Under the pieces are notes generated by a model. That model was given only the letters and a program-made list of their open reading frames with translations. It was not told where the DNA came from and did not search any database. The position numbers and the translations under genes are program-made. From Chloroflexota bacterium (GTDB lineage: Bacteria; Chloroflexota; Limnocylindria; Limnocylindrales; CSP1-4): a stretch of 64,000 nt of DNA. Shown piece after piece: positions 10,470 through 28,096 of this stretch. Position 1 is the first letter of the stretch. The number at the start of each line of letters is the position of its first letter. The DNA is taken from contig JACCVQ010000133.1 in the NCBI GenBank assembly GCA_013698095.1, positions 2,596 to 66,595 of the forward strand, read 5' to 3'.

Positions 10470-11306
10470 ATGACCCCGACGCTGACCCTGGTCCTGCCGG
10501 CGTTCAACGAGGCCGATCGAATTGGCCCCGCCCTCGATGAGCTGTTCGGGTACCTGCATCGGCGCGGCTCGGAGGCACGGGACGGTGCCCCGGGCTCAGC
10601 GGATCTCCCCGAGCGGATCGAGGTTCTCGTGGTTGACGATGGAAGCGACGACGGCACAGCCGACCTCGTGCGCGCCCGGCCGGAGGCGAAGCCGCCAGCG
10701 GATGGATCGGCGCCCGAGCTCACCGTGATGACCGTCGGCCATGCCGGCAAGGGAGCCGCGGTACGGGCGGGGATGCTGGCTACGACGACGGACCTGATCG
10801 TGTTCGCGGACGCCGACATGGCCACGCCACCGGACATGCTGCCGCTCGTTGTCGGCGCACTCGATGTCCATGACATCGCCCTCGGCAGTCGCATCCAGCC
10901 TGACGGCTCCGACATGCGGAAGAGCCAGCCTGTCTATCGCCGCTGGCTTGGCAAGGTATTCCATCTCCTGGCGTCTGCCTGGGTTGTCGGACCGGTTCAG
11001 GACACCCAGTGCGGTTTCAAGGGCTTCACCCGGAGCGCGGCGCACGACCTGTTTGGCCGTCAGCGAATCACCAGCATCGTGTTCGACGTGGAGCTGATTT
11101 TTCTCGCTCGGCGACGTGGGTACCGGATGAAGGTCGTCCCGATCAGGTGGGCCGACCGGCGCGGCTCGAGAATGCGCGCCCGGCCGAGGCTGGCACTCCG
11201 CGTCGCATGGGACCTCCTCCGAATCCCCCTGATCCATCGGCGCCTTGGAGCGCCGGTCCGGCCGGTCGATACGGCCGACCACACCCATGGCTCTCGCGAC
11301 GCCTGA
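10470..11306 (+). CDS. GT2 polyprenyl-phosphate glycosyltransferase (dolichyl-/decaprenyl-phosphate beta-glycosyltransferase-like, Ppm1/DPM1/ALG5 type)
   Basis: LTLVLPAFNEADRIGPALDEL, VVDDGSDDGT, FADADMATPP, VQDTQCGFKGF and VFDVELIFLARRRGY are the classic GT2 polyprenol-P-sugar synthase motifs. Confidence 0.85.
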   Translation: MTPTLTLVLPAFNEADRIGPALDELFGYLHRRGSEARDGAPGSADLPERIEVLVVDDGSDDGTADLVRARPEAKPPADGSAPELTVMTVGHAGKGAAVRAGMLATTTDLIVFADADMATPPDMLPLVVGALDVHDIALGSRIQPDGSDMRKSQPVYRRWLGKVFHLLASAWVVGPVQDTQCGFKGFTRSAAHDLFGRQRITSIVFDVELIFLARRRGYRMKVVPIRWADRRGSRMRARPRLALRVAWDLLRIPLIHRRLGAPVRPVDTADHTHGSRDA

Positions 11307-12456
11307 GAACGCTGGCCCGGCTGGGCCGGGCGCAACGACGGCGGCAGCGGCTCTCCGCGTGGCGGCCATCCTGTCCATCGTCGTCGTGCCCGGGGTGGTC
11401 ATCCTGTCCGCCGTCGGGGCCGGGACCTTCGGGTACGACTTCCTCGCCTATCACCAGGCCGTCGAACGGGTCGTCGCCGGGGATCGCCTGTACGATCCGT
11501 CGGTCCAGATCACGGGCGGGTTCGGGCTGTTCTACTACCCGCCGCCCTTCGTCCTGCTCCTGCTGCCGCTCGGGCTGCTGCCTTCCGCCATCGCCTCGAA
11601 CCTGTGGCTCGGGACTTCGGCCGTCATGCTCCTCGCTGGGATCGCGATCCTGCCCGTTCGACCGACCGTGCGCTGGGCAATCCTCCTCCTCGCCGGCCTG
11701 TCGTGGCCGGTCGCGTACGCCCTGAAGCTCGGCCAGGTCGGACCACTGCTCCTCCTCCTCTTTGCCGTCGGTTGGCGCTGGCGGGATCGGCCCATCGTGT
11801 TCGGCCTGGCCGGCGCGATCGGCACGATCGTCAAGATCCAGCCGGGGATCGTGCTGGCTTGGGCGGTCCTGACCCGGCGCTGGACGGCGGTCGTCGTGGC
11901 GGCGGCCCTGCTTGTCCTCGCGTCCGTCATCGCGACTGTTGTGGCCGGTGGCCCGTCGATCTGGGCTGACTACCTGACTCTCCTTCGAATTGTCAGCGAT
12001 CCGATCACGACGCCGCACAACTTCACGCCCGGCGCCGTCGCCTACCAGATGGGCGCCCCGGTGGGGATCGCAGCGGGCATCCAGGTGGTCAGCTCGGTCG
12101 CCGCAGTCGCCGCGGTCGTGGTCGCGGCGCTGCGCATGCCCGCGGACGTGTCCCTCCTCGTCGCGATCGTCGCAAGTCAGCTCCTGTCGCCGGTCCTGTG
12201 GGATCACTACGCCTTGCTTCTGCTCCTCCCGGTCGCCTGGCTGCTCGAGCGCGGGCACTGGTGGGCGATCGCAATCCCCCTGTCGACATCTGTGCTGATG
12301 CTTCCGGTGGGACTGCCCGCAATCGTGTTCCCGATCGCCTTCTGGGTGACGATGGCGGCGTTGCTCGCTGTCGGGTCGAACGAGGCGGCCCGAGCCAGGG
12401 TGACGGCGGACGCTTCAGCGCCCGAGGTCCGGCCGCTGTCACAGAGCCTCCAATGA
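11287..12456 (+). CDS. DUF2029 / GT87-like membrane glycosyltransferase
   Basis: ORF 11245..12456, with ATG 11287 preferred. Contains GYDFLAYHQAVERVVAGDRLYDP...FYYPPPFVLLL, LKLGQVGPLLLLLFA and GTIVKIQPGIVLAW. Confidence 0.75.
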   Translation: MALATPENAGPAGPGATTAAAALRVAAILSIVVVPGVVILSAVGAGTFGYDFLAYHQAVERVVAGDRLYDPSVQITGGFGLFYYPPPFVLLLLPLGLLPSAIASNLWLGTSAVMLLAGIAILPVRPTVRWAILLLAGLSWPVAYALKLGQVGPLLLLLFAVGWRWRDRPIVFGLAGAIGTIVKIQPGIVLAWAVLTRRWTAVVVAAALLVLASVIATVVAGGPSIWADYLTLLRIVSDPITTPHNFTPGAVAYQMGAPVGIAAGIQVVSSVAAVAAVVVAALRMPADVSLLVAIVASQLLSPVLWDHYALLLLLPVAWLLERGHWWAIAIPLSTSVLMLPVGLPAIVFPIAFWVTMAALLAVGSNEAARARVTADASAPEVRPLSQSLQ

Positions 12457-13724
12457 GCTCGACGCCCGGGACGCTTGCGCCCGTGACCGCCCGCGCCACG
12501 TTTGCCGAGCGCTTCGACCGCGCGGCCCAGGTCGGCGTCGCCGTCACGATCCTCGCGGCGCTCGTGTACTGGCTGTCGAACCGGATGTTCGACGCGACCC
12601 GGGGCGACTTCTTCTACCTCGCCGACGCGTTCCTCCATGGTCGGGTGTGGCTCGACGTCCGGCTCGGCTACCAGGACGTGATCCTGCAGGACGGCCACCC
12701 CTACGTTCCGTTCGCGCCATTCCCGGCTGTCGCCCTGATGCCGATCGTCGCCCTCGTCGGGCCGGCCGTCGCGGACCAGTGGGAGACCGGGATCAATGCC
12801 GCCCTCGCCGCCGCGTCGGTCGGCCTGGCGTGGTGGTTCACCGGGCGAGCGGGCGTCCGATCGCTGATCGACCGGTTCTGGTTGGTGCTCCTGCTCGGTT
12901 TCTCGACCCAGATCTGGTGGGTCACGACCCGGGGCGGGGTCTGGCACACGGGGCACCTCGTCGCGACGATCCTGACGATGGCCTGCCTCGTCGAGCTGTG
13001 GGGCTCGCGCCGGGCCTGGCTCATCGGCCTGCTGGCGGGGGCAGCGTTCATGACCCGGGCGCCGCTGGCCTTCGCGATCCCGTTCTACGCCCTGCTCCTC
13101 GGCGGCGATCGGATCTGGGAGCCGCGCCGCTGGCCGTGGCGGGCGTGGGTCGAGCTCGCGGCCGGCGTGCTGCCGTCACTCGTATTCTTCTTCTGGTACA
13201 ACGCCGCGCGGTTCGGATCGCCGCTCGAATCGGGCTACGCCCTGGCGCTGCTTCCGGAGTGGCTCGAAAACCAGCGCAAGCTGGGCCTCTTCTCGACCGC
13301 CCACATCGGGATGAATCTCGAGTACCTGTTCGTGAAGATGCCGCGCCAGATCGCGGAATTCCCGTTCTTCCGTCCGGACGGACTCGGCATGTCGATCTTC
13401 ATCACCTCGCCCGGCCTGCTCTACGCGAGCCGCGCACCGTGGCGATCGTCACGGACGTGGTGGCTGGCCGGGGCGGCCCTGCTCGTCCTGATTCCGACGT
13501 TGCTCTACTACGGCGGCGGCTGGCTCCAATACGGCTACCGCTACGCCCTCGACTCGATTCCGTTTGTGTGGGCGCTGTGCGTGCTCGCGGCGGCCGGCGC
13601 GGCCGAGCGACTGGCGAAGCTGGGGGTCGAGCGTCCGGTGATCGGTCTCGGCTGGCGGCTGTTGATCGCCCTCGGCGTCCTCGTCGGCCTGGGCAGCGTC
13701 TACTGGGCCTATAACCTCAAGTGA
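12453..13724 (+). CDS. GT-C fold membrane glycosyltransferase (ArnT/PMT-like, 423 aa)
   Basis: ORF 12198..13724 was trimmed to ATG 12453 (ATGA overlap with the upstream stop). Contains GDFFYLADAFLHGRVWLD...DGHPYVPFAPFPAVALMP followed by about 10 TM helices. Confidence 0.62.
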   Translation: MSSTPGTLAPVTARATFAERFDRAAQVGVAVTILAALVYWLSNRMFDATRGDFFYLADAFLHGRVWLDVRLGYQDVILQDGHPYVPFAPFPAVALMPIVALVGPAVADQWETGINAALAAASVGLAWWFTGRAGVRSLIDRFWLVLLLGFSTQIWWVTTRGGVWHTGHLVATILTMACLVELWGSRRAWLIGLLAGAAFMTRAPLAFAIPFYALLLGGDRIWEPRRWPWRAWVELAAGVLPSLVFFFWYNAARFGSPLESGYALALLPEWLENQRKLGLFSTAHIGMNLEYLFVKMPRQIAEFPFFRPDGLGMSIFITSPGLLYASRAPWRSSRTWWLAGAALLVLIPTLLYYGGGWLQYGYRYALDSIPFVWALCVLAAAGAAERLAKLGVERPVIGLGWRLLIALGVLVGLGSVYWAYNLK

Positions 13725-13791
13725 TGCTCGCGGGGCGGGTTCCCCCCTAGCGTGCAACACTCCCCGGCGAACCCGGCCCAATGGAGGAACC

Positions 13792-16104
13792 GTGCGCCAT
13801 CCCCGCCTCGTCCTTGCGATCTTCATCCTGTCCGGCGCCGCCGGGCTGATGTACGAGGTGGTCTGGTCACGCCAGCTCGTGCTCGTCTTCGGCAACACGA
13901 CCCAGGCCGTCTCGACGATCCTGACGGGGTTCTTCGGCGGCATGGCGGTGGGCTCGTTCCTTGGCGGGCGGCTGGCCGACCGGGTGCGGTCGCCGCTCCG
14001 GCTGTACGGGATCATCGAAGTCGTGCTCGTCGTCGTCGTCCTCCTGACGCCGGTCACGTTCCGCCTCCTCCATGAGCTGTACCGCGGGATCTACCCCGCG
14101 ATCGAGGGCCAGCCGATCGTCCTCGCCCTGCTCCGCTTCGCACTCGCGATCCTGGCGCTCGCCCCGGCGACGGTCCTGATGGGGGCAACGCTGCCCGCGC
14201 TGACCCGCCAGCTCAGCCGAGACAAGCACTTGTCCGCCGCCTTCGGACGGCTGTACGCGGCCAATACATTGGGCGCGATCTTCGGGACGCTCGCGGCCGG
14301 TCTGGTCCTGATCGAACTGGCCGGATTGACGGGCACACTCGTCATCGCCGCCGCCTGCTCCGCGGTCGCCGGGGCGGTCGCTCTTGTCCTCAGCAGGGGT
14401 CCGGGCGCGGTCGATCCGCTACCGACAGTCGCTCGGGCCCAGGAGGCGTTGGCAACAGCGGTCGCTTCCAGCCGACGCCCCACTCTCGCCCTGGTCCTTG
14501 CCTTCGTCTCGGGACTGACATCCCTTGGCTATCAGGTCCTCTGGACGAGGTTGCTGTCGTCGGGCACGGGGAATTCGACGTATGTCTTCACGCTGATCCT
14601 CGCGATGTTCCTGATCGGGATCACGATCGGCGCATTGATCTTCAACGCGAATCGCCGACGAATTCGCCAGCCGGTCGCCCTGATCGCGATGGCTCAGGCG
14701 CTGGTGGCCGCGATCGCCTTCGTGGGCCTCGTGCTCGTGATCGGCAAGCCCGGTCCAATTGACCCGGGCAATGCGTTCGAGTCCGCCCAGGCGATTCTCG
14801 GGCCGATCATTCTCGTCGTCCTGCCCGCAACGATCGTGATGGGCTTCACGTTTCCGGCCGCGTCCACGCTCCTCGGCGACGATCCGGACCGGATCGCCGC
14901 CAATGCCGGTCGCCTGCTGGCCGCCAACACGGCGGGCTCGATCACCGCCACCTTCGCGATCCCGTTCTTCGTGATTCCGGCGGTCGGCTCACCGAACGCC
15001 GTCGCCCTCCTCGCCCTCGTCAACGTTGCGACCGCGATCGCCCTTGTCGCCAGCCGTGCCGGAGCGCGGTCCGTCTCGCCCAATCGTCGCCTCGCGACGG
15101 GGCTCGCCGCCGCCGTCGTCGCTGTCGCGATCGTGGCCGGGCTCGCGAGGCCGGGCACGATCGTCGACCCGAGCGTGGCCCGGATCCACGAACGGAAGGC
15201 GCAGCTGTTCGAGAGCCAGGAGGACGAGATCGCGTCGGTCCAGGCCGGCGCAACGGCGACGCAGCAGCTCTGGGTCACCGGCACCGCGATGACGCTCCTG
15301 ACGGTCGACGCCAAGCTCATGCCGATCCTGCCGCTCGTCCTCCGGCCAGAGTCGCAGAGCGCCGCGACCGTCGCCTTCGGGATGGGCTCGGCGTTCCGGG
15401 GCGCCCTGATCGCCGGCATGAAGACCGAGGGGATCGAGCTCGTCCCGACCGTGCCGAAAATGTTCCACTGGTTCTACCCGGATGCCGGCAAGTTCCTCGC
15501 CGACCCGAATGGCGAGATCATCGTCACCGACGGCCGGAACCACATCGAGCTCACCACCGAGACCTACGACATCATCGTCACCGACCCGCCGCCGCCGATC
15601 TTCAGCTCGGGTGCCTCGGTCATCTCATCGCTCGAGTACTACCAGGCCGGCCACGCCCGCCTCAATCCGGCCGGGATCATGATGCAGTGGGTCCCATACG
15701 GCGCCACGATCGACGAGTTCAAAGCGCACGTCCGGACGTTCAAGAGCGTGTTCCCGCACGTCACGATGCTGTTCGGGCCGGGCGGCTACGGGCTGTACAT
15801 GATGGGCAGCGACCAGCCGATGGCGTTCGACGAGGCGACGACACGCGAAGTCCTGGGCCGGCCCGGCATCCTCGAGGACATCTCGTCGGCGTACGACTCA
15901 CGAGCAACGACGATTGACCAGTGGGTCACCAAGATCGACCAGCTCCGCTGGATCGACGATGCCGCGGTCGATCGGTTCACCGGGTCCGGACCGCTGATCA
16001 CCGACGATCGCCCGTTGCCCGAATACTTCCTCCTGCGCCGGGTGCTCAACCGGGATGTCCCGCTCGCGCACCCGGGCCTGCTGCTCTCCCTGACCCGCGG
16101 CTGA
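13792..16104 (+). CDS. fused polytopic membrane domain / spermidine-synthase-like (class I SAM-fold) protein
   Basis: The N-terminus FILSGAAGLMYEVVWSRQLVLVFGNTTQAVSTILTGFFGGMAVGS and the following TM helices match the fused MFS/spermidine synthase family. The C-terminal part reads VAFGMGSAFRGAL...IIVTDGRNHIE...YDIIVTDPPPP...EYYQAGHARLNPAGIMMQW, an aminopropyltransferase-like fold. Confidence 0.75.
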   Translation: MRHPRLVLAIFILSGAAGLMYEVVWSRQLVLVFGNTTQAVSTILTGFFGGMAVGSFLGGRLADRVRSPLRLYGIIEVVLVVVVLLTPVTFRLLHELYRGIYPAIEGQPIVLALLRFALAILALAPATVLMGATLPALTRQLSRDKHLSAAFGRLYAANTLGAIFGTLAAGLVLIELAGLTGTLVIAAACSAVAGAVALVLSRGPGAVDPLPTVARAQEALATAVASSRRPTLALVLAFVSGLTSLGYQVLWTRLLSSGTGNSTYVFTLILAMFLIGITIGALIFNANRRRIRQPVALIAMAQALVAAIAFVGLVLVIGKPGPIDPGNAFESAQAILGPIILVVLPATIVMGFTFPAASTLLGDDPDRIAANAGRLLAANTAGSITATFAIPFFVIPAVGSPNAVALLALVNVATAIALVASRAGARSVSPNRRLATGLAAAVVAVAIVAGLARPGTIVDPSVARIHERKAQLFESQEDEIASVQAGATATQQLWVTGTAMTLLTVDAKLMPILPLVLRPESQSAATVAFGMGSAFRGALIAGMKTEGIELVPTVPKMFHWFYPDAGKFLADPNGEIIVTDGRNHIELTTETYDIIVTDPPPPIFSSGASVISSLEYYQAGHARLNPAGIMMQWVPYGATIDEFKAHVRTFKSVFPHVTMLFGPGGYGLYMMGSDQPMAFDEATTREVLGRPGILEDISSAYDSRATTIDQWVTKIDQLRWIDDAAVDRFTGSGPLITDDRPLPEYFLLRRVLNRDVPLAHPGLLLSLTRG

Positions 16105-16171
16105 CCGGGCCCGTACTCGGCGCACCGACATTCCTACTTGACCGGGTGCTGCGCGTCGCCACGATGAGGAC

Positions 16172-18499
16172 GTGATCGAACCGGGGGCCGTCACCGACGG
16201 CGCAGATCCGCCCGTCCACGCCCACGCCCACGCCGACACGCGTCGGCGATGGCTGGCCCCGTCGTCGGCCGTCCTCGCCTTCGGCGGGGTCATCGGCTGG
16301 TCGGCGTTCCTGCTGTTCTCGGTCGAGCCGCTGATCGGCCGGCTCGTCCTGCCGGTCTTCGGTGGAACGCCGGCCGTCTGGGCGACGACGCTGTTCTTCT
16401 TCCAGGCTGTCCTGCTGCTCGGCTACCTGTACGGCCATCTCTCGGTGACACGACTCGGGATCCGGCGCGGCGCCGTGCTCCACATCGCGCTCGTCCTGGC
16501 TGCCGGCGCCGCACTCGCCCTCTCGCCGGCGCGCCCAGCGGACCTCCGCGACCCGGCCATTCCGGACGTGCTCAACCTCGTCGGCATGCTGGCCCTGACG
16601 ATCGGGCTGGCGGCGTTCGTCCTGACGACCACGACGCCACTCGTGTCAGCGTGGTACGCGGCCAGCCGGACCGCCACCAGCGACGGCGGCGACGCCTACT
16701 GGCTCTACGCCCTGAGCAACGCGGGGTCCCTGCTCGCCTTGCTCGCCTATCCGTTTCTCATCGAGCCACGGCTGGGGCTGTCGGCCCAGCGTGGGGTGTG
16801 GGCCGTCGGCTTTGTCGTGTTTGCCTTGGCGATCGCCGGGTGCGCCGCATGGGCGAGCGGACGCGCCGGACGGACGTCACCCGCGGCCGGACCGGACGAG
16901 CTCGAGACAACCGGCGCATCCGAGCCGATCGCCGGGCGGCGGCGGGCGACCTGGCTGCTCCTGGCAGCGGTGCCGTCCGGGCTGCTGTCGGCGGTCACCA
17001 CGTTCATCGCCACCGATCTCGTCTCGGCTCCGTTGTTGTGGCTTGTGCCGCTGGCGATCTACCTGCTTACGTTCATCGTCGCGTTCTCGGATCGCGGTCG
17101 TCGCATGGTGCCTGCGGCCGCACTCGTGGCCCCCGCCGCGGTCACCCTGATGTGGGTGCCGTTCGGGTCGGCCGGTGGCTGGCCGATCCTGCCGCTCGTC
17201 GTCCTGATGTACGGCGGCCTAGGTGTCGTCGCCACCGCGATGCACGGCCGGCTCGCCATGGACCGACCGGATCCGGCCCATCTGACCGAGTTCTACCTCG
17301 TGATCTCGATCGGCGGGGCGCTCGCCAGCGCGTTCGTCGCGCTCTTCGCGCCAATCCTGTTTCCGGGCGTTTGGGAGTTCCCGATCCTGCTCGTCCTGGC
17401 CCTCGTCGCCCTCGCCGCGACGGAGCCACGGCGTCGCGGCAGTGGCGTCGCGCGGACCAACCGACCACCGATCAACCTGGCGCCGTTCGTCCGCGGCGCC
17501 CGGAGCCGAGTGCTGCCCTACCTCGCGGTCGCCGCGATCCTTGTCGTGTTCCTGGTGCGCGACACGTCGCTCGGTGCGGAGGCCGGTATCCGCTGGCTGC
17601 TCGTCGGCGGACTGATCCTGCTCGTCGGCGCGCGGCCCGCATTTCTGGCCACATCCACGGCGCTCGTTCTGGCGCTCGCCGTCCTCGTCCTCCAACCGGC
17701 CGCGATCTTCCGCGACCGGAGCTTCTTCGGCGTGACCGAGGTCCTCCGACCGGACGGCGCACCACAGACCACGTTGATGAACGGGACCACGGTCCACGGA
17801 GTCCAGTGGACGGATTCGGCGAAGGCGCAGATGCCGACCGCGTACTACGCGCCGGCCGGCCCGTTCGGCGACGTCTTCGCGGCATTGGAGAGCGATGACC
17901 AACCAAAGGACATCGCGATCGTCGGCCTCGGCGCCGGCGCATTGACGTCGTACCTCCGGCCGAACTGGACGATGACCTACTTCGAGATCGATCCGCTCGT
18001 GGCAGAGGTCGCGTCGGATCCGCGCTTCTTCACGTTCCTGTCGAGCGCGAATCCGCGGCCATCGATCGTCTTGGGCGACGCCCGCCTGTCCCTCTCGGAC
18101 GTTCCGGCTCAACGATTTGACGCGTTGTTCGTCGACGCATTCTCGTCCGATGCCGTGCCCACGCACCTGCTGACCAGCGAGGCCTATGCGCTCTACGCCC
18201 GGCTCGTCAAGCCTGGCGGCCTGGTCGTGACCCACATCCCGAATCGCTATTACGATCTGGCCCCGGCCGTTGCGGGCGCCCAGGCGGCAAATGGCCTGAC
18301 GGCCCTGATCCGAACGTTCCAGCCGACCGAGACCGAGGCGCGTGAGGGCGCGGCGCCCACGATCCTCGCGGTCGCATCGTCGATCGGATCGTCGCTCGCG
18401 GACTTGCGCGACGGCGGCTGGCAGCCGCTCGAACCGACCGTCCCTCCGATGACTGACGACTTCATGGACGCGCTGCGGTTTCTTCGTCCGCTCTGGTAG
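16172..18499 (+). CDS. fused polytopic membrane domain / spermidine-synthase-like protein (second tandem copy)
   Basis: GTG start at 16172. N-terminus reads LLFSVEPLIGRLVLPVFGGTPAVWATTLFFFQAVLLLGYLYGH. C-terminus reads DIAIVGLGAGALTSYL...FEIDPLVAEVA...IVLGDARLSL...FDALFVDAFSSDAVPTHLLT.EAYALYARLVKPGGLVV. Confidence 0.72.
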   Translation: MIEPGAVTDGADPPVHAHAHADTRRRWLAPSSAVLAFGGVIGWSAFLLFSVEPLIGRLVLPVFGGTPAVWATTLFFFQAVLLLGYLYGHLSVTRLGIRRGAVLHIALVLAAGAALALSPARPADLRDPAIPDVLNLVGMLALTIGLAAFVLTTTTPLVSAWYAASRTATSDGGDAYWLYALSNAGSLLALLAYPFLIEPRLGLSAQRGVWAVGFVVFALAIAGCAAWASGRAGRTSPAAGPDELETTGASEPIAGRRRATWLLLAAVPSGLLSAVTTFIATDLVSAPLLWLVPLAIYLLTFIVAFSDRGRRMVPAAALVAPAAVTLMWVPFGSAGGWPILPLVVLMYGGLGVVATAMHGRLAMDRPDPAHLTEFYLVISIGGALASAFVALFAPILFPGVWEFPILLVLALVALAATEPRRRGSGVARTNRPPINLAPFVRGARSRVLPYLAVAAILVVFLVRDTSLGAEAGIRWLLVGGLILLVGARPAFLATSTALVLALAVLVLQPAAIFRDRSFFGVTEVLRPDGAPQTTLMNGTTVHGVQWTDSAKAQMPTAYYAPAGPFGDVFAALESDDQPKDIAIVGLGAGALTSYLRPNWTMTYFEIDPLVAEVASDPRFFTFLSSANPRPSIVLGDARLSLSDVPAQRFDALFVDAFSSDAVPTHLLTSEAYALYARLVKPGGLVVTHIPNRYYDLAPAVAGAQAANGLTALIRTFQPTETEAREGAAPTILAVASSIGSSLADLRDGGWQPLEPTVPPMTDDFMDALRFLRPLW

Positions 18500-18580
18500 C
18501 TGGTGGCTCCGCACGGTCGCTGTTTCCGCGCTCCGTTGCGGCCGCAATCGAATCCGGGGACCCGGTGCTATCCTCGGCCC

Positions 18581-19816
18581 GTGACCACCCACGCTCCCAG
18601 CGCGGAGCCCGCCTGTCCGGGCGCGACCACCCCCGACAGGCCAGCCGACCAACCGGACGCAGCCCTGGATCCGGCCGCCCTGCGCGTTGAGCGACGAGCG
18701 TTCGACGACGTCCCGCGGGCAACCTGGGATCGCCTGGCGGCAGCGAATTCGTGGGCGACGCCATTCTCGTCGTGGGCCTACCAGCGGGCGTGGTGGGATG
18801 CCTACGGCGCGAGCGCTCACGATCAGACGCTCATCGTCGTCCGCGCCGGCGGCGCGCCAACAGAGCCCGTCGCGATCGTGCCCCTCATGCACCGCCACGA
18901 GGTGGAGCCCGGCGATGAGGCAACGGCCTCGAAGATCCGTCACGGCGACCCGGGGAACCTGACTCCCGTCCCGCCGACCGCCAAGGCGATCTTCTTCGGC
19001 GCCTCGTACCACGCCGACTACGCGACGATCCTTGCGGCGCCGGCCGACATGCCCGCGGTCGCCACGGCTCTCGTCGACCACCTTGCCTCGCCCGACGCGG
19101 TCGACCCCGGCCATCCGGAGCCGTGGGACGCGGTCGACCTGCGCCGCCTCCGCTGCGGCGACCCAACCGCCGACGCCCTGGCCAGAGCCTTCGGAGTGCG
19201 CGAGATGGGCGAGCGTTGGACGCTCAATCTGGAGCGCGAAGACGTCTGCCCGGTCGTCACGTTCCCCGAGAACGTCGATTTCGAGGGCTATCTCGCGACC
19301 CTCGACAAGAAATCGCGCCACGAGATCCGGCGCAAGATCCGGCGAGCCGAGGCCTCGGGAGAAGTCCTCCTGGCGCCATCAGCAGACCCCCTCGCCGACC
19401 TGCCCGACTTCATCGACCTCCATCAGCGCCGCTGGGGTGCGGACGGGCTGTTCCCGCCGACGCCGGGCGGTGACGCGTCGCGGGTGTTCATGCGCCGGCT
19501 GTTCGAGGAGAACGGCCCGGACGGCCCCGTCCGGCTGTCGTTCCTGACCGTCGGCGAGCGGCGCGTTGCCGCCGGGATCCATGTCGCGACGGCCGACACC
19601 TGGATGTTCTACAACGCCGGGATCGACCCCGACGCCCGCGAGCTGTCGCCGGGCGTCCTGCTCGCCGCGCGCTACGTGCAGGCGGCGCTCGAGGCCGGCA
19701 TGGGGCGGTTCGATTTCCTGCGCGGTAACGAGCCGTACAAGTACGAGTGGGGCTCCGAGGACGAGCCGATCCAGCGGCTGCTGGTGCGCCGGGACGCCGA
19801 CGGGAGCTCCGCCTGA
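18581..19816 (+). CDS. GNAT-fold acyltransferase, CelD / BioF2-like (FemAB-related) family
   Basis: ORF 18503..19816, with GTG 18581 the likely start. Contains WDRLAAANSWATPFSSWAYQRAWWDAYG, FEGYLATLDKKSRHEIRRKIRRAE, and FLTVGERRVAAGIHVATADTWMFYNAGIDPD...SPGVLLAARYVQAALEAGMGRFDFLRGNEPYKYEWG. Confidence 0.7.
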   Translation: MTTHAPSAEPACPGATTPDRPADQPDAALDPAALRVERRAFDDVPRATWDRLAAANSWATPFSSWAYQRAWWDAYGASAHDQTLIVVRAGGAPTEPVAIVPLMHRHEVEPGDEATASKIRHGDPGNLTPVPPTAKAIFFGASYHADYATILAAPADMPAVATALVDHLASPDAVDPGHPEPWDAVDLRRLRCGDPTADALARAFGVREMGERWTLNLEREDVCPVVTFPENVDFEGYLATLDKKSRHEIRRKIRRAEASGEVLLAPSADPLADLPDFIDLHQRRWGADGLFPPTPGGDASRVFMRRLFEENGPDGPVRLSFLTVGERRVAAGIHVATADTWMFYNAGIDPDARELSPGVLLAARYVQAALEAGMGRFDFLRGNEPYKYEWGSEDEPIQRLLVRRDADGSSA

Positions 19817-21018
19817 TGGGAGCGCCCCCGACCTGGGACCCATGTCTCGTCCCGCTCGAGCACGTTGACCTGCCCGGCCCGCAGCGCGTCCGGGTCGTCG
19901 AGATCCTCGCCACCGGCACCAGCGGCGGCGCACAGGAGCACCTCTTTTCGCTGCTGTCGCGGCTCGACCGCACGTTCTACGAGGCGTCGGTCGTCGCCTT
20001 GTCGGGGGGCAGCGCGGTCCGCAAGCTCCAGCGCCACGGCTTCGATGTCACCGTCATCGACGAAGCCGACGATGCGGCCGCCGTCCGCGCCCTCACCGCC
20101 CACCTGGCGATGGTCCGACCGGACGTCGTCCACACCCACATGTACCGGGCCGACATCGTCGGGACGAAGGCCGTCATCGCCCTCCGCGACAGCGGCCATC
20201 GGGCACCGTACGTCGTCTCGACGGTCCACTCGTCGCGGATCCGCTCGCACGAGGACCGCGACCTCCTCCGCCAGCTCACCCCGTCAATGGACCAGCTGAT
20301 CGCGGTCTCGAAGTCGATCGAGCGCAAGATCGCCGACGAGCACCGGACCGGCGCGCCGGTCCGCCTGATCTACAACGGGGTGGACCTCCAGCGCTACGAC
20401 CACCAGGAGCCGTGCGCCCCGTTCGGCGACCAGTACGGGATCGAGACCGGATCGAAGATCGTCGGGGTCGTCGCCCGGCTCGAGTCGGAGAAGGGTCACC
20501 AGACCCTGATCGAGTCCTGGCCGGCGGTCCTCCGCGAGGTCCCGGACGCGTACCTGTTGATCGTCGGCGAGGGCTCGCGACGCGACGCGCTCGAACAGCT
20601 GGCGTCGGCCCGCAGGGTCGGCCATCGAGTCGTCTTCACCGGGCGTCGCGACGACATCCCGGCCGTCACCGCCGCGCTTGACGTCGCCGTCCTACCCTCG
20701 TGGCGCGAGGCCCAGGGCCTGTCGATCCTCGAGGCGATGGCGTTGTCGCGGCCGGTCGTCGCATCCGATGTCGGCGGGATCCCGGAGATGGTCGAAGACG
20801 GCGTCACGGGCCTGCTCGTGGAGCACGACAACCCGGCTGCCCTGGCCGCTGCGATCGTCCGTCTGCTGAAGGATCGCCCGTTCGCCGCGAGGATCGCCAA
20901 GGCCGGCCACGACCTCGTCCACGACCGCTTCTGCATCGAGTTGATGGTCAAGGCGATCGAGCAGATCTACGACGACGGCGCTCGCGCCGTTCGCCTGGCC
21001 GAGGCCGCGGCGAGCTAG
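19816..21018 (+). CDS. GT4 (GT-B fold) glycosyltransferase
   Basis: ORF 19747..21018 was trimmed to ATG 19816 (TGATG overlap with the upstream stop). Contains GGAQEHLFSLLSRLD, VVARLESEKGHQ, and WREAQGLSILEAMALSRPVVASDVGGIPEMVEDGVTGLLV (the E-x7-E region). Confidence 0.85.
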   Translation: MGAPPTWDPCLVPLEHVDLPGPQRVRVVEILATGTSGGAQEHLFSLLSRLDRTFYEASVVALSGGSAVRKLQRHGFDVTVIDEADDAAAVRALTAHLAMVRPDVVHTHMYRADIVGTKAVIALRDSGHRAPYVVSTVHSSRIRSHEDRDLLRQLTPSMDQLIAVSKSIERKIADEHRTGAPVRLIYNGVDLQRYDHQEPCAPFGDQYGIETGSKIVGVVARLESEKGHQTLIESWPAVLREVPDAYLLIVGEGSRRDALEQLASARRVGHRVVFTGRRDDIPAVTAALDVAVLPSWREAQGLSILEAMALSRPVVASDVGGIPEMVEDGVTGLLVEHDNPAALAAAIVRLLKDRPFAARIAKAGHDLVHDRFCIELMVKAIEQIYDDGARAVRLAEAAAS

Positions 21019-21086
21019 CTCTCGCATCGCCGGTAGGACCATCGTCGTGGTGCGGAGGCGCACCGGGGCGGGCTAGGATCGCCCTT

Positions 21087-21941
21087 GTGAGAGACCGCCT
21101 GCTGCGCGACGGGTTCGTCATCCTTGCCGTCGCCTTCGTCGCGTTGCGTCTCCTCGCGATCAAGCCGTGGGCCGACAGCGTGGATGCGTACGCCTACTGG
21201 ACGACACGCGACGGTGTCTTCTACCAATACGCGACGACGGGGCGGATCGGGGCGTACCTCTATTCGCCGGCGTTCGCCCAGGCCCTTGCGCCATTCGTCT
21301 GGTTGCCGCTGGCGGTCTTCACAGCGCTGTGGACCGCCCTGAACAGCGCTGCGCTGTGGTTCATCCTCCGACGCTGGGCCCTGCCGAGCATTCTCTTCCT
21401 GCCGATCGCCTTCGAGATCGTGTCCGGCAACGTCCACCTCCTGTACGCCGCCGCAATCGTCGTCGGGTTCCGCTGGCCGGCGGCGTGGGCGCTGATGCTC
21501 CTGACGAAGGTCACGCCGGGCGTCGGCATCCTGTGGTTCCTGGTCCGGCGCGAGTGGCGCTCGCTCGCCATCGCGCTCGGCGTGACCGCGGCAATCGCCG
21601 GAGTCTCGTACGCCCTCGACGCGACTCAGTGGGCACGCTGGATCGAGATCCTGCGGGCCGATGCAGGGGGCGCCGGCGAGGGCACTTTCACGACCGTCGG
21701 CGGTTACCTCCCGATCGCGCTCGCGCCGCGCCTGGCGGTGGCCGTGGTCGTGGTCGTCCTCGCCGCGCTGACGGATCGTCGCTGGCTTGTCCCGGTCGCG
21801 GTCGTCCTGGCAATGCCCGTCGTCTGGGTGAACAGCCTCGCCGTCCTCGCCGCCTGCGTTCCACTGTGGCGCGAGCGCCGCGTCCCGGTCGCGCGACCGG
21901 AGACGTTTGGCGGCACGCCGCCGCTCGGGGCACGCCCATGA
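21087..21941 (+). CDS. DUF2029 / GT87-like membrane protein (short, 284 aa)
   Basis: ORF 20700..21941 was trimmed to GTG 21087 (VRDRLLRDGFVILAVAF...). Contains SVDAYAYWTT...YLYSPAFAQALAPF, SGNVHLLYAAAIVVG and LLTKVTPGVGILWFLVRREW. Confidence 0.6.
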   Translation: MRDRLLRDGFVILAVAFVALRLLAIKPWADSVDAYAYWTTRDGVFYQYATTGRIGAYLYSPAFAQALAPFVWLPLAVFTALWTALNSAALWFILRRWALPSILFLPIAFEIVSGNVHLLYAAAIVVGFRWPAAWALMLLTKVTPGVGILWFLVRREWRSLAIALGVTAAIAGVSYALDATQWARWIEILRADAGGAGEGTFTTVGGYLPIALAPRLAVAVVVVVLAALTDRRWLVPVAVVLAMPVVWVNSLAVLAACVPLWRERRVPVARPETFGGTPPLGARP

Positions 21942-23080
21942 GCCGGTCCACGAGCTCGCCCCCGCGGCCCGCGTTCGGCCGACGTCCGGCCGACATCGTG
22001 TCGATCGTCGCCATCGGAGCCGTCATCGTCGCCTACATCGGGTACGGCCTCCTGACCGCCCAGAGCACGCTCGGTTGCGACTTCCTCGCCTACTTCAACG
22101 CGTCCGTCAACTGGGCCCACCACAGGCCGATCTACGACCTCTCCGTCGCCTCGACCGGGACGTGCGGGATCTACCAGTACCCGCCGCCCTTCGTGATGCT
22201 CGCGATCCCGTTTAGCGTCTTCGGGTTCGACATGGGCAACGGCCTGTGGATCGCGTTCCTGCTCGCGTGCTGGGGGATCGGGACGGCGATCCTGCCGGTC
22301 CGGCCGACGACGCGCATCATCATCCTGCTGGTCGGCGCGGTCGGCTGGCCGCTGCTCTACGGCGTCCGGCTCGGCACGGTCGCACCGATCCTCTACGTCC
22401 TGTTCGCGCTGGCCTGGCGGAACCTCGAGCGGCCCGTCTGGCTCGGCGCGAGCGTGGCGATCGGAGCCATGGTCAAGCTCCAACCGGGGCTGATCGCCGT
22501 CTGGCTCCTTGTCCGCCGCGACTGGCGTGCGCTGGCGGCCGCGGCCGTCGTGGGTGCGGTCATCGCCGGGATCGCGGCGGTGGTCGGCCTGTTCGATTGG
22601 CTTGGCCTCCTCACCCTCCTCAGATCGCTCTCGAATGCGGTCGACATCCCGGTCAACATGGCGATCGGGGCGACGCTGCGCAGCCTGGGCATGGATCTCG
22701 AGCTCGCCCGGACCATCCAGACCGTCAACACGATCGTGATCCTGGCGATCGTCGTCGTGACCGGGATCCGGCTACCGCGAACGGCGGGCTTCCTCGTGGC
22801 GGTCGTTGCGAGCCAGCTGATCTCGCCGATCGTGTGGGCCCACTACGCCGTGATATTGCTCCTGCCCGTGGCGTGGCTCCTCGATCGGGGGCAGTGGTGG
22901 GCCATTCTCATCCCGCTCGTCCATCTCTGGGTGCTCCTGCCCTTTGCTCCCAACTGGACCTATGCGGTCGCCTTCCACGCCACGTTGATCGGGTTGATTG
23001 TCGTGGGCTGGCGCGACGGCAGAGAGGCGGAGGAACCGACTTCGGCCGCAGTCCTGGCGGCAAACGAGCCGGCCGCCTGA
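21938..23080 (+). CDS. DUF2029 / GT87-like membrane glycosyltransferase
   Basis: ORF 21167..23080 was trimmed to ATG 21938 (ATGA overlap). Contains GCDFLAYFNASVNWAHHRPIYD...YQYPPPFVMLAIPF, VRLGTVAPILYVLFALA and GAMVKLQPGLIAVWLLVRRDW. Confidence 0.75.
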   Translation: MSRSTSSPPRPAFGRRPADIVSIVAIGAVIVAYIGYGLLTAQSTLGCDFLAYFNASVNWAHHRPIYDLSVASTGTCGIYQYPPPFVMLAIPFSVFGFDMGNGLWIAFLLACWGIGTAILPVRPTTRIIILLVGAVGWPLLYGVRLGTVAPILYVLFALAWRNLERPVWLGASVAIGAMVKLQPGLIAVWLLVRRDWRALAAAAVVGAVIAGIAAVVGLFDWLGLLTLLRSLSNAVDIPVNMAIGATLRSLGMDLELARTIQTVNTIVILAIVVVTGIRLPRTAGFLVAVVASQLISPIVWAHYAVILLLPVAWLLDRGQWWAILIPLVHLWVLLPFAPNWTYAVAFHATLIGLIVVGWRDGREAEEPTSAAVLAANEPAA

Positions 23081-24384
23081 TGCAGTACGGGGTGATCGGG
23101 GCAGGGGTCCTCGGGATGACCGCGGCGCTGCGCCTCCTGGAGCGCGGTCACGAGGTGTCGATCCTCGAGGCCGGCGATGGCGTCGGCGGCCTTGCCGGGA
23201 GCTTCGAGGTCGAGCCCGGCATCTGGCTGGAGAAGTTCTACCACCACATCTTCCGATCGGACCGCCGGATCACCGCCCTGATCGAGGAGCTCGGGCTCGG
23301 GCCGAGCCTGCGCTGGCACGAGCCGGAGACCGCGATGCAGTCAGGCGGCCGAGTCGAGGCATTCGACACGCCGGGCGCCGTCCTGCGCTTCAGCGGCCTG
23401 CCCCTGATCGACCGGGTCCGACTCGGCGCCGGTGTCGCTCTCCTCAAGGCGATGCCGCGATCCGGGCCGATCCAGGATGTCAGCGCCCGGCGCTGGCTCA
23501 CCCGGGTGATGGGCGGCAACGCCTGGCGAGTCGTCTGGGAGCCACTGCTCCGGGGCAAATTCGGGGATGCGGCCGACGACGTCTCGATGGCCTGGCTGTG
23601 GGCCCGGATCCACGATCGAACGCGTCAGCTCGGGTACATCGACGGCGGCTTCCACCAGCTCTACACCCGGATCGCCTCCCGGATCGACGAGCGTGGCGGG
23701 CGGCTCGTCACGGGCTTCCGGGCCGCGGCGATCGAGCCGCAGGGAGCGGAGATTTCGGTCAGGAGCGCCGACGCTCGGGTCGAGACATTCGATCGCCTGA
23801 TCTCGACCCTGCCCGCTCACCTGACGCTCGGGATCACCAAGGACCCGGCGATCGACCCCACGGCCGGGCCGCGCCCGCCGGATGCGCTCGGCGCGCACTG
23901 CCTGATCCTCAGTCTCGATCGACCGCTGACGGGGCGCTACTGGATCGGCGTTGCAGATCGCGGAAGCCCGTTCCTTGCCGTCGTCGAGCACACCGCGATG
24001 CTGGAGCCGGCCGCGTACGGCGGCCGGCACCTTGTCTATCTCGGCAACTACGTGCCCCACGACGACCGGCTGTTCGAGGAGACCCCGGACGAAACCCTCG
24101 CCCGCTACGCACCGGCGATCCGCGGCCTGAACCCGGCCTTCGATCCGTCCTGGGTGGGCAAGCGCTGGGCGTTCGGTGCCCGGTTCGCCCAACCGATCGT
24201 GACCCCGGGCTTTCGGATGCGCATCCCGCCGTTCGAGACCCCGGTCCCGAACCTGTTCGTCGCGAGCATGTTCCAGGTGTTTCCCCACGATCGCGGCCAG
24301 AACTACTCGATCGAGCTGGCCGAGCGGGTGGTCGCCCGCCTCGAGGGCCCGGCGCGCACGACGCCCGCCGGCGCGGGCCGATGA
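23080..24384 (+). CDS. FAD/NAD(P)-binding oxidoreductase, amine-oxidase / protoporphyrinogen-oxidase-like fold
   Basis: ORF 22246..24384 was trimmed to ATG 23080 (TGATG overlap). The N-terminal dinucleotide motif is MQYGVIGAGVLGMTAALRLLERGHEVSILEAGDGVGGLAG. The rest is soluble. Confidence 0.75.
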   Translation: MQYGVIGAGVLGMTAALRLLERGHEVSILEAGDGVGGLAGSFEVEPGIWLEKFYHHIFRSDRRITALIEELGLGPSLRWHEPETAMQSGGRVEAFDTPGAVLRFSGLPLIDRVRLGAGVALLKAMPRSGPIQDVSARRWLTRVMGGNAWRVVWEPLLRGKFGDAADDVSMAWLWARIHDRTRQLGYIDGGFHQLYTRIASRIDERGGRLVTGFRAAAIEPQGAEISVRSADARVETFDRLISTLPAHLTLGITKDPAIDPTAGPRPPDALGAHCLILSLDRPLTGRYWIGVADRGSPFLAVVEHTAMLEPAAYGGRHLVYLGNYVPHDDRLFEETPDETLARYAPAIRGLNPAFDPSWVGKRWAFGARFAQPIVTPGFRMRIPPFETPVPNLFVASMFQVFPHDRGQNYSIELAERVVARLEGPARTTPAGAGR

Positions 24385-25808
24385 GCCTCGCTCGCCTGTG
24401 GGCATTCCTTGCGATCGGGTTGCCGGTACTCGCGGCGCTGATCGCGAACCTGTCGGCGGTCGATCTCGCGTACCACCTGCGGGCCGGCGGGATCGTCCTC
24501 GACACCGGCCGGATCCCGACGACCGATACGTTCACGTTCACCGCCGCCGGCGAGCCGTGGCTCAACCAGCAATGGGGCGCCCAGGTGATCCTCGCGACGG
24601 TCTATCGCGTCGCCGGCTGGACGGGGCTGGCGCTCCTGCGCGCCGTGCTCGTCGGTCTCACGTTCGGACTGTTGTTCGAGGCGTGTCGGCGGCGCGGCTT
24701 CGACCTTCGACGTGCCGCCTGGCTGACGATCGCGGCGTTCGTCGTGACCGCGGTTGCCCTGGCTCTTCGGCCGCAGCTGTTCGGGATGGCGCTGCTGGCG
24801 CTGACGCTCCTGATCGTCGTGGAGCGGCGCGCCCATCCGCGTCTGTTGTGGGCGGTGCCGGTCATCGTCTTCGCCTGGGCCAGCATCCACGGCAGCTTCA
24901 TTCTCGGCCCGGTCGTGCTCGGGCTCGCCTGGCTCGAGGACGTCCACGACCGCGTGCCCGGCCGGCACCGGCTCCTCGGCGTCGCAGTCGTCGCGGCGGC
25001 GGCCGCGCTCGTCAACCCGTTCGGCATTGGCGTGTGGGCCTATGCCGTGGGGCTGTCGACGAACAGCTTCGTGACGAGCCGGATCAGCGAGTGGCAGCCG
25101 ACGACGCTCCGGACGATCCCCGGGATCCTGTTCTTCGGATCGGTCGCGGTGGCCGTCCTCCTCCTCGTTCGGCGTGGCCGGCCGCCCACTTGGCCGGCGC
25201 TCGCCTGGCTGGCGGTCTTCGCCGCGATCGGCACGTATGCGATCCGCGGTGTCGCCTGGTGGCCGCTGGGCTCCGCGGTCGCGATCGCCGGGGTGCTCGC
25301 GGCGCGCGAGACGTCCACGGAGGCCGCGCCTGCCCCGCGGCGTGCCGAGCGCTCGAGCCGCCTCAACGTCGTCTTCGTGGGGTTGATCGTCCTCGTCTGC
25401 GTCGCCCTCGTGCCAGTCTGGCGCCCGATCGACAGCCGCCTCGGCGTCCCGGTGGGGACCGTCGGCGACGCCCCTGGCGGGATCACGCATGCGCTCGGGA
25501 AGGCGGTCCGGCCGGGCGACCGGATCCTCAACCCGCAACCGTGGGGATCGTGGTTCGAGCTGGCCCTGCCGCAGGCCACGGTCGCCCTCGATTCCCGGAT
25601 CGAGGTGTTCCCGGCCGCGGTCTGGGACGACTACGACGCGGTCCACCGCGGGACCGACGGATGGCAGGCCATCCTCGCCCGCTGGGCGCCGACATTCGTC
25701 GTTGCGACCGACGACGAGGACGCGTTCGTCGCGCGCCTGACACTGACGGGCTGGACGGTGCTCTACGCCGACGATGACGGCACGATTCTGCGGCGCCCGG
25801 CCTCGTGA
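24381..25808 (+). CDS. polytopic membrane protein with C-terminal soluble domain, probable GT-C-type glycosyltransferase or glycan polymerase (family unassigned)
   Basis: ORF 22998..25808 was trimmed to ATG 24381 (ATGA overlap). Contains MSLARLWAFLAIGLPVLAAL..., DTFTFTAAGEPWLNQQWGAQ, and many TM helices. The C-terminal part of about 140 aa is hydrophilic. Confidence 0.55.
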   Translation: MSLARLWAFLAIGLPVLAALIANLSAVDLAYHLRAGGIVLDTGRIPTTDTFTFTAAGEPWLNQQWGAQVILATVYRVAGWTGLALLRAVLVGLTFGLLFEACRRRGFDLRRAAWLTIAAFVVTAVALALRPQLFGMALLALTLLIVVERRAHPRLLWAVPVIVFAWASIHGSFILGPVVLGLAWLEDVHDRVPGRHRLLGVAVVAAAAALVNPFGIGVWAYAVGLSTNSFVTSRISEWQPTTLRTIPGILFFGSVAVAVLLLVRRGRPPTWPALAWLAVFAAIGTYAIRGVAWWPLGSAVAIAGVLAARETSTEAAPAPRRAERSSRLNVVFVGLIVLVCVALVPVWRPIDSRLGVPVGTVGDAPGGITHALGKAVRPGDRILNPQPWGSWFELALPQATVALDSRIEVFPAAVWDDYDAVHRGTDGWQAILARWAPTFVVATDDEDAFVARLTLTGWTVLYADDDGTILRRPAS

Positions 25809-27077: not shown

Positions 27078-28096
27078 AGATCCTGATCACCGGCGCCGCC
27101 GGGTTCATCAACGGCTATCTCGTCCCGGAGCTGCTCGAGGCCGGCCACGAGGTCATCGGGCTCGACGACTTCAGCAAATACGGCCGCCTGACGAAGTCGT
27201 ACGACCATCACCCGCGTTACCGCTTCTTCGAGGGCGACGCCAAGGACGTCGGGCTGATGACCGAGCTGGCGGCAGACGTCGACCAGGTCGTGGCCGCCGC
27301 TGCGATGATTGGTGGGATCAGCTACTTCCACGAGTTCGCGTACGACCTGCTGGCCGAGAACGAGCGGATCCTCGCCTCGACGTTCGATGCGGCGATCGCC
27401 GCCCACAAGACCGGCCGGCTGAAGCGGATCATCGTCGTGAGCTCGTCGATGGTCTACGAGTCGGCGACGGTGTTCCCGACCCCGGAAGGCGCCGAGAAGA
27501 CCTCGCCGCCGCCGATCTCGACCTACGGCTTCCAGAAGCTCGCGTCCGAGTATTTCGCGGCCGGTGCCAGGGAGCAGTTCCAGCTGCCGTACACGATCGT
27601 CCGACCGTTCAACTGCGTCGGGATCGGCGAACGCCGGGCCACGCGCGACACCGACATCATGTCCGGCAACGTGAAGCTGGCTCTCTCGCACGTCGTACCG
27701 GATCTCGTGCTCAAGGTGCTCAAGGGCCAGGACCCGCTCCACGTCCTGGGCGACGGGTCGCAGGTCCGCCACTACACGTACGGCGGCGACCTCGCTCATG
27801 GCATCCGCCTTGCGATGGAGTCGCCGGCCGCCGAAAACAACGACTTCAACCTGTCCACGGCCCGCTCGACGACCGTCCTCGAGCTGGCCGAATGCATCTG
27901 GTCGAAGATCCACACCGACGGCCGCCCGTTCAACTACACCTCGGACACGCCGTTCAAGCACGATGTCCAGCTCCGCGTCCCGGACGTCCGGAAGGCGAAG
28001 GAAGTCCTCGGCTATGAGGCGACGACGTCGCTCGAGACGATGCTCGACGAGGTGATCCCGTGGATCCGCGACGAGGTCGCGGCGGGGCGGCTGTGA
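27074..28096 (+). CDS. NAD-dependent epimerase/dehydratase (extended SDR)
   Basis: ORF 26951..28096 was trimmed to GTG 27074 (GTGA overlap). Contains VKILITGAAGFINGYLVPELLEAGHEVIGLD, SSSMVY and YGFQKLASE (Y-x3-K). Confidence 0.85.
   Translation: MKILITGAAGFINGYLVPELLEAGHEVIGLDDFSKYGRLTKSYDHHPRYRFFEGDAKDVGLMTELAADVDQVVAAAAMIGGISYFHEFAYDLLAENERILASTFDAAIAAHKTGRLKRIIVVSSSMVYESATVFPTPEGAEKTSPPPISTYGFQKLASEYFAAGAREQFQLPYTIVRPFNCVGIGERRATRDTDIMSGNVKLALSHVVPDLVLKVLKGQDPLHVLGDGSQVRHYTYGGDLAHGIRLAMESPAAENNDFNLSTARSTTVLELAECIWSKIHTDGRPFNYTSDTPFKHDVQLRVPDVRKAKEVLGYEATTSLETMLDEVIPWIRDEVAAGRL

Follow-up and report, generated by a model that had tools for sequence, protein, structure and literature searches.

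Here, we analyse two adjacent genes, termed A and B, in a 64,000-nucleotide stretch of DNA (the window; positions 2,596 to 66,595 of contig JACCVQ010000133.1, assembly GCA_013698095.1) from an uncultured soil Chloroflexota bacterium of the Limnocylindria. Gene A (13792..16104; window features are on the forward strand unless stated otherwise) encodes a protein of 770 amino acids (aa), in which a 12-helix transporter-like domain of the major facilitator superfamily (MFS) and a thirteenth transmembrane helix (TM13) precede a soluble domain with the fold of the spermidine synthase SpeE; gene B (16172..18499) encodes a protein of 775 aa, in which a 15-helix membrane domain precedes a domain of the same fold. 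Both proteins have lost the aspartate with which SpeE recognizes decarboxylated S-adenosylmethionine (dcSAM), and gene A is a core gene of a glycosyltransferase cluster that is conserved within the Chloroflexota. We tentatively favour, with somewhat less than even confidence, the view that A is a core and B an accessory component of a pathway whose product, an envelope glycoconjugate, is assembled at the outer face of the membrane and in which a transporter would bring a cytoplasmic molecule to a SpeE-fold domain located outside.

Domain architecture and relationship of genes A and B

Both open reading frames are real genes, with G+C contents at third codon positions of 0.89 (A) and 0.87 (B) and hundreds of full-length homologues. 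Residues 13-385 of A match the Pfam family MFS_1 (PF07690; 4.4e-11, 42.7 bits against a gathering score of 33.4), and residues 569-632 match Spermine_synth (PF01564) at 17.3 bits, which is under the gathering score of 22.9. Residues 571-688 of B give weak matches to Spermine_synth (16.6 bits) and to the MnmC-type model Methyltransf_30 (7e-5), and its membrane domain has no Pfam family and no match in the PDB by sequence. The membrane domain of A likewise has no sequence match in the PDB, so that no MFS protein of solved structure is detectably similar to it. By score, both proteins are members of the NCBIfam family NF037959, 'fused MFS/spermidine synthase' (cut-off 40 bits), A with 95.7 bits over three stretches and B with 50.5 bits over residues 509-696 only; A also shares the N-terminal six-helix unit of this family, although the NF037959 model comprises 480 positions whereas A and B are ~770 aa long with 13 and 15 helices, respectively. 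Scores against the synthase models are far lower than the family cut-offs, with A and B reaching 30.9 and 15.9 bits against TIGR00417 (cut-off 249.55) and 92.7 and 24.5 bits against PRK03612 (NF002956), the membrane-bound SpeE family, whose equivalog cut-off is 472.

AlphaFold2 models of A and B, built from 55-sequence alignments, are confident. The model of A (predicted local distance difference test score, pLDDT, 79; predicted template modelling score, pTM, 0.78) contains 13 membrane helices followed by the soluble domain, with pLDDT below 50 at residues 477-501 and 600-610, two loops that flank the active site, whereas in the model of B (pLDDT 85.5, pTM 0.88) 15 helices precede the soluble part, which consists of a beta-hairpin domain plus a Rossmann domain. 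In Foldseek searches, only SpeE structures head the lists for the two soluble domains, the top PDB matches being 1uir for A (2e-7, TM-score 0.59) and 3gjy for B (1.5e-7, TM-score 0.61). The fold, an N-terminal beta-hairpin plus a Rossmann domain, is that of SpeE in general (PF01564, TIGR00417; 1uir, 1inl, 3o4f, 6o65). In A, the MFS 'motif A' (GGRLADRVRSPLR; 13963..14001) was read from the sequence of the loop between the second and third transmembrane helices and marks the cytoplasmic face, and the first transmembrane helix (TM1) carries an acidic residue, again by sequence reading; TM13 spans aa 430-452 (15079..15147) in the AlphaFold2 model and would bring the domain behind it to the outside, and the SpeE-fold domain spans aa 453-770 (15148..16101), as delimited by Foldseek, HMMER alignments to 1uir, 3o4f and 1inl, and family invariants. 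In B, the membrane domain, defined by the AlphaFold2 helices, covers aa 33-505 (16268..17686) and the SpeE-fold domain aa 506-775 (17687..18496), as judged by Foldseek and by HMMER alignments to the Arabidopsis thaliana spermidine synthase AtSPDS. Pfam/NCBIfam, AlphaFold2 and Foldseek therefore agree with the first-pass annotation of this DNA, which had described two genes of ~770 aa, each combining a many-helix membrane domain with a C-terminal SpeE fold.

At 50% identity, 11,188 clusters match the soluble domain of A alone, and the full-length matches mostly share the ~770-aa architecture; in longer homologues (885-959 aa) the added part is N-terminal and hydrophobic, and it is uninformative on which side of the membrane the SpeE-like domain faces. 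Although A and B had been described as a tandem pair, which holds for their adjacency, they are not duplicates of each other: a recent tandem duplication is rejected by a BLASTP E value of 0.006 and an hhalign probability of 2%. Common to the two proteins are only the fold, the TM1 signature E-x4-R-x5-F-G-x-T, which is the sole feature shared by their membrane domains, and a TDD motif just past the soluble domain (16000-16008 in A; 18452-18460 in B).

Active-site substitutions and predicted membrane orientation

The residues of A and B were mapped by HMMER alignment to the SpeE enzymes of Escherichia coli, Thermotoga maritima, Thermus thermophilus and A. thaliana. In motif I, which reads GGGDG in SpeE, A has FGMGS (within FGMGSA, 15376-15393), with G532 at the aspartate position, and B has GLGAG (17924-17938), with A588 at that position. 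As in SpeE, the ribose-binding acid is kept (E549 in A, 15436-15438; E605 in B, with the EID motif at 17984-17992), as are the adenine-binding Asp-Gly pair (D580-G581 in A, with D580 at 15529-15531; Gly-Asp, G635-D636, in B, 18074-18079) and the first aspartate of motif IV, the proton acceptor, which is invariant both as D598 in A and as D655 in B. The strings IIVTDPPPP of A and FVDAFSSD of B had been assigned to this D-x-x-D motif at the outset, and the alignments to SpeE structures place them there. Unlike SpeE, however, A has DPPPP (15583-15597), with P601 in place of the second aspartate, which in SpeE contacts the distal amine of the polyamine, and B carries a two-residue insertion (D-AF-SSD; DAFSSD, 18134-18151), after which D660 is of uncertain equivalence to that aspartate. 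With the cofactor-binding scaffold largely kept in these alignments, a pure scaffold, which the first-pass annotation had allowed for, is not indicated. Among 47 members of the A family with 25-61% identity, there is no variation at G530, G532, D580, D598, P601 or P602, and at least 90% of the sequences have E549; the pocket of A is therefore under selection.

In SpeE, the GGGDG aspartate contacts the aminopropyl amine of dcSAM and keeps S-adenosylmethionine (SAM) out (PMC3725402). Its exchange in the spermidine synthase of Datura (D103I) abolishes aminopropyl transfer and confers SAM-dependent methyl transfer, the equivalent exchange in the T. maritima enzyme (D101I) lowers kcat ~2000-fold, and plant putrescine N-methyltransferase arose from SpeE via the loss of this aspartate (PMC3725402). 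Because A and B lack the very residue whose exchange abolishes such transfer elsewhere, their sequences make aminopropyl transfer from dcSAM unlikely, and if either protein uses a SAM-type cofactor at all, SAM is more likely to be that cofactor than dcSAM. The plant N-methyltransferase, with its SpeE fold and its switch from dcSAM to SAM, offers a parallel: A and B likewise have a non-acidic residue at the aspartate position and retain the adenosyl-binding residues, a pattern that is compatible with, but no proof of, a methyltransferase of this type. The plant enzyme differs from A and B, which are membrane proteins and share SpeE ancestry with it, in being soluble and in having kept the aspartate that binds putrescine (PMC3725402).

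Homologues of A and B are publicly annotated as 'spermidine synthase' or 'fused MFS/spermidine synthase'. The two proteins have the fold and the first motif IV aspartate of a canonical SpeE, but they attain neither the score thresholds nor the GGGDG aspartate, and the name 'spermidine synthase' is probably wrong for their branch. That they are not ordinary soluble polyamine synthases, as had been argued from genomic context, is supported by the present analysis.

In MFS proteins, the TM2-TM3 loop that carries motif A is cytoplasmic. The number of helices ahead of the SpeE-like domain is odd in each of three architectures, namely 12 + 1 = 13 in A, 15 in B, and seven in a third type of protein, type C (~700 aa), in which the domain lies between TM7 and TM8 and is followed by seven further helices. 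Loop Lys+Arg counts are strongly skewed towards the loops assigned to the inside, with 17.5 inside versus 3.0 outside in the A family alignment, 20.8 versus 2.8 in the B family alignment, and 22.1 versus 3.7 in type C (seven sequences from three phyla). Because helix counts, motif A and the positive-inside Lys/Arg bias concur across the three architectures, the SpeE-like domain is predicted to sit on top of the transporter at the outer face. Among distant homologues of A, conservation is 0.49-0.67 in the short outward loops and 0.66 in the C-terminal TDD tail, versus 0.15-0.42 in the inward loops. In type C, the motifs GAGSG and EID look canonical, and motif IV reads A-L-P-D-S.

Genomic context and conservation of the cluster

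The window has a G+C content of ~70%, and the nearest relatives of genes A and B are found in Chloroflexota metagenome-assembled genomes (MAGs), chiefly of Candidatus Limnocylindrales. The near-complete region was found in one sequencing run only, a soil metagenome; no RNA sequencing run containing the region was found, and all runs with it were DNA runs of soil metagenomes. A scan of species-representative genomes yielded 322 relatives, of which 80 were kept; nearly all of these are labelled Chloroflexota, and a few short contigs among them carry other bin labels. Neighbours were counted in the related loci, at species level, that reach 19 kb or more; there are 48 of these, 47 of which stem from the scan and one of which is L001.

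Genes A and B belong to a run of 14 same-strand genes (10470-28842), recognized by codon-position G+C, with intergenic gaps of at most ~70 bases. Its first gene encodes a family 2 glycosyltransferase (GT2) that resembles polyprenyl-phosphate-sugar synthases (10470..11306; Pfam/NCBIfam; present in 37 of the 48 loci), followed by a GT87 enzyme of the GT-C type, from the PimE-like mannosyltransferase family (11245..12456; PF09594, 7.9e-23; 38 loci), and a polytopic membrane protein directly 5′ of A (12453..13724; no family match; 40 loci). Downstream of B lie a GNAT acyltransferase (Acetyltransf_6, CelD/FemAB-like; 18503..19816; PF13480, 1.5e-28; 41 loci) and a GT4 glycosyltransferase (19747..21018; Pfam; 40 loci), which agrees with the CelD-like acyltransferase and GT4 noted initially. 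The order continues with two more GT87 genes (21087..21941 and 21938..23080; frame analysis and Pfam), an oxidoreductase of the flavin adenine dinucleotide (FAD) amine-oxidase fold (23080..24384; PF01593, 2.5e-34; PRK07233, 421 bits; a weaker match to HpnE), a second conserved polytopic membrane protein (24381..25808; no Pfam/NCBIfam match; 33 loci) and, at the end of the run, a nucleotide-sugar dehydrogenase, an epimerase/dehydratase and a second GT2 (25881..28842). The FAD gene is present in only one of the 48 loci (L019) and hence is a recent insertion outside the core; as a link to polyamine metabolism it was rejected on the same count, its best family being PRK07233 and the match to HpnE, a desaturase, being weaker.

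About 40 of the 48 related species thus share a conserved cluster of GT2, GT87, membrane protein, A, GNAT and GT4. B, found in 7-8 of the loci, is an accessory gene rather than a constant partner of A, and type C occurs in 12. A homologue 54% identical to A has a different arrangement (GT2, an A-like gene, PMT_2 and four GT87 genes), and one homologue of B has both GT87 genes and two type C genes as its neighbours. The glycan-gene link is strong and old within the Chloroflexota and is not family-wide. The co-occurrence with glycosylation genes that the first-pass annotation had anticipated is therefore lineage-specific, being strong in the Chloroflexota but absent at the six more distant A-family loci examined. 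The proposal that the proteins act on a membrane-bound or exported substrate fits both the predicted outer-face domain and the presence of A in a glycan operon in ~40 of 48 species.

The first-pass annotation had also placed a GT-C gene directly 5′ of A, an assignment that could not be confirmed; the GT87 gene sits one gene further upstream. The protein encoded at 12453-13724 has no match in Pfam, NCBIfam or the PDB by sequence or profile search, and hhalign comparison of this protein and of the one at 24381-25808 with GT87 and PMT_2 proteins encoded in the window gave probabilities of ~1% or less, so that its GT-C identity finds no support in these searches; an Asp-containing motif in its first loop is the sole hint. 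Both family-less membrane proteins (40/48 and 33/48 clusters) may be unrecognised GT-C-like enzymes.

The operon is part of a very large envelope-glycan region (window 1-47500), in which GT87 genes number six in all and PMT_2 genes three. Besides these three PMT_2 genes, the ~47 kb around the operon contain two further GT87 genes, a PIG-L deacetylase and genes that serve the synthesis of nucleotide sugars, amino sugars and NeuB-type sugars. The region also encodes a nucleotidyltransferase, a DegT aminotransferase, a NeuB-type synthase, a thiamine pyrophosphate enzyme, and FkbM-type and other methyltransferases. The GT2 genes of the operon are ArnC-like, and ArnT-like PMT_2 genes lie just 5′ of the operon on the opposite strand. 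Further along the window, the reverse strand carries another unusual MFS fusion, a 766-aa DUF5317-MFS protein (51434-53734; PF17248 with PF07690 and MFS_3), as well as a large BTAD/AAA/TPR regulator (55742-59170) and the replicative helicase DnaB (61141-62496), which are unrelated to A and B.

Several observations concern relatives in other settings. At L020:5917-9918 and 15514-18450, in another Chloroflexota genome, an A-like paralogue lies between sheath and core genes of a phage-tail-like extracellular contractile injection system rather than among glycan genes. Type C genes were located at L009:12312-14441, L001:14890-17097 (reverse strand), L085:13243-15333 and 17191-19437 (both reverse strand) and L091:7929-10010, and type C homologues of 40-44% identity occur in Novosphingobium, Streptomyces and Nonomuraea. 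The one on Novosphingobium plasmid pLA5 is near a VTT/DedA gene, a GT2 gene and a gene for a protein with an ArnT-like first-loop motif; a universal link between type C and glycan genes was rejected, as such a context is seen on pLA5 and in neither Streptomyces nor Nonomuraea. VTT/DedA genes also lie directly 5′ of A-like genes at two related Actinomycetes loci (L083:9093-9794 and L089:6385-7086), and that on pLA5 (L091:11568-12176) is one gene removed from type C. A role in the flipping of polyprenyl phosphate has been ascribed to DedA proteins, and this adjacency may represent a link across phyla.

Proposed role, competing explanations and implications

In the mechanism that we tentatively favour, A and B, which have lost aminopropyltransferase features, would be anciently diverged members of a membrane-embedded SpeE-fold superfamily, and the Limnocylindria operon would use polyprenyl-phosphate sugars to build an envelope glycoconjugate, its GT-C enzymes being active on the outer face. 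Lipid-linked intermediates would be made on the cytoplasmic face by the GT2, GT4 and GNAT proteins, as their family assignments suggest. The transporter-like domain of A (in some genomes that of B or type C) would then carry its cargo out of the cytoplasm to the outer face; this cargo could be either a lipid-linked intermediate or a small cationic co-substrate. There the SpeE-fold domain, docked onto those conserved transporter loops that face outward, would bind the delivered molecule in its retained acidic pocket (E549, D580, D598 and TDD in A; E605, D636, D655, D660 and TDD in B). The domain would subsequently modify the molecule or hand it to GT87/GT-C enzymes, and if it is catalytic with a SAM-type cofactor, SAM methyl transfer would be likelier than dcSAM aminopropyl transfer. 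The architecture, fold, residue substitutions and conserved synteny on which this scheme draws are shown here, whereas we infer the outward orientation, the cargo of the membrane domain and all of the chemistry.

Comparable systems exist for individual parts of this scheme. LtaA is a glycolipid flippase, and LplT and MFSD2A are MFS lipid transporters; like these and Rv1410 with LprG, A has an MFS fold, and it belongs to a pathway in which lipid-linked sugars need to be moved. Rv1410/LprG also provides a precedent for an MFS protein with an extracytoplasmic partner, although these transporters, unlike A, have no SpeE-like domain. Within the operon (10.4-28.8 kb), genes for Wzx, ABC or GtrA-type flippases were not detected, which leaves room for a role of A in moving lipid-linked sugars; that A flips or otherwise moves them is something we purely infer. 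L-Ara4N (4-amino-4-deoxy-L-arabinose) transfer by ArnC/ArnT, D-alanylation by DltB/DltD and acetylation by OatA/OafA follow the same logic of a cytoplasmic donor, a membrane domain and an extracytoplasmic modifier, yet their folds are entirely different from those of A and B, and we know of no SAM-type donor in decorations of these kinds. A literature search found no function for the fused MFS/spermidine synthase family. A bolder extension, which we regard as quite improbable, is that types A, B and C form a new class of transporter-coupled extracytoplasmic enzymes, in which an MFS-like domain feeds an outward-seated Rossmann-fold domain that then modifies envelope glycans or hands its substrate on; the cargo could be a SAM-type alkyl donor, or it could be a polyprenyl-phosphate sugar, which would make these proteins candidate lipid-linked-sugar flippases.

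Several points weigh against an outer-face role. The chief difficulty is a well-conserved SAM-like pocket in a place from which SAM is not known: in its GxG, Glu, Asp and Asp positions, all of them retained, the pocket resembles a SAM-binding Rossmann site, and to our knowledge neither SAM nor dcSAM is supplied outside the membrane, which puts 'outside' and 'SAM-dependent' in tension. The same lack of a known supply, together with the missing GGGDG aspartate in both proteins, tells against the aminopropylation that the first-pass annotation had suggested. Furthermore, the topology derives from predicted helices and the positive-inside rule, and the last two helices of B are only 17 residues each. 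With respect to genomic context, one B homologue lies in unrelated surroundings, none of six more distant A-family loci (33-53% identity; an Ignavibacteriae MAG, Actinomycetes MAGs and metagenome contigs) has glycosyltransferases nearby, and seven of the 48 Chloroflexota loci lack the cluster, one of which (L013) still has PMT-type and TMEM260-like GT-C genes in its vicinity. In addition, synteny inside one class is not independent evidence at each locus.

The conservation of the motif I glycines, the ribose-binding glutamate, the adenine-binding aspartate and the motif IV aspartate, taken with the restriction of SAM to the cytoplasm, would be accounted for if A and B were cytoplasm-facing SAM-dependent alkyltransferases, likeliest methyltransferases, that act on an inner-leaflet lipid-linked glycan or lipid intermediate held by the membrane domain. 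The Methyltransf_30 match of B points in the same direction, as does the loss of the GGGDG aspartate, which retraces the route from SpeE to plant putrescine N-methyltransferase (PMC3725402). This explanation requires the topology prediction to be wrong, whereas the 12 + 1, 15 and 7 + domain + 7 arrangements would all need odd extra helices and the strong Lys/Arg bias places the domain outside; TM13 would also be needless if an MFS-fused domain were cytoplasmic, and soluble methyltransferases are already present in the operon region. We consider it unlikely, though deserving of some weight. A genuine polyamine synthase fused to a polyamine exporter, which would send spermidine or a relative to the cell surface and whose place in the operon would be incidental, matches the public annotation and the SpeE fold. 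Cation-exporting MFS proteins carry an acidic TM1 residue, as A does, and B keeps the first motif IV aspartate and, with D660, may keep the second. Nevertheless, this explanation seems very improbable given the missing GGGDG aspartate in both proteins and the missing second aspartate in A, the wide shortfall against the TIGR00417 and PRK03612 cut-offs, the predicted outside orientation and the conserved synteny with glycan genes.

A third possibility is that the outside domain is not catalytic and serves as an extracytoplasmic binding domain on a transporter, where its role could be uptake or sensing through capture of an adenosyl compound, a polyamine or a sugar phosphate; alternatively, it could act as a scaffold or chaperone for GT-C enzymes. 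Such a role would suit a predicted outside location, where SAM chemistry is unprecedented, as well as the more distant homologues looked at, of which most are stand-alone genes, and the two poorly modelled loops of A around the active site. However, the motif IV aspartate and the DPPPP loop are invariant in more than 40 distant homologues, suggesting catalysis over binding only, and gene A is closely integrated into an operon for biosynthesis; we regard this possibility as distinctly unlikely.

The present analysis adds the loss of the dcSAM-specific aspartate, the DPPPP and TDD signatures, the outward prediction in three architectures and the Limnocylindria cluster. A conserved GT87 cluster of the lipomannan style is thus present in Limnocylindria, a soil lineage without cultured members, and A and B probably act on envelope sugar chains. 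Members of the very large family to which they belong are publicly named 'spermidine synthase'. If the outward orientation is right, these proteins would have a Rossmann-type, cofactor-like pocket in a compartment with no known nucleotide cofactor, which would represent either a new way to feed an envelope-modifying enzyme or a new use of the SpeE fold; a SAM-derived donor would, in addition, make them the first known case of SAM chemistry beyond the cytoplasmic membrane.

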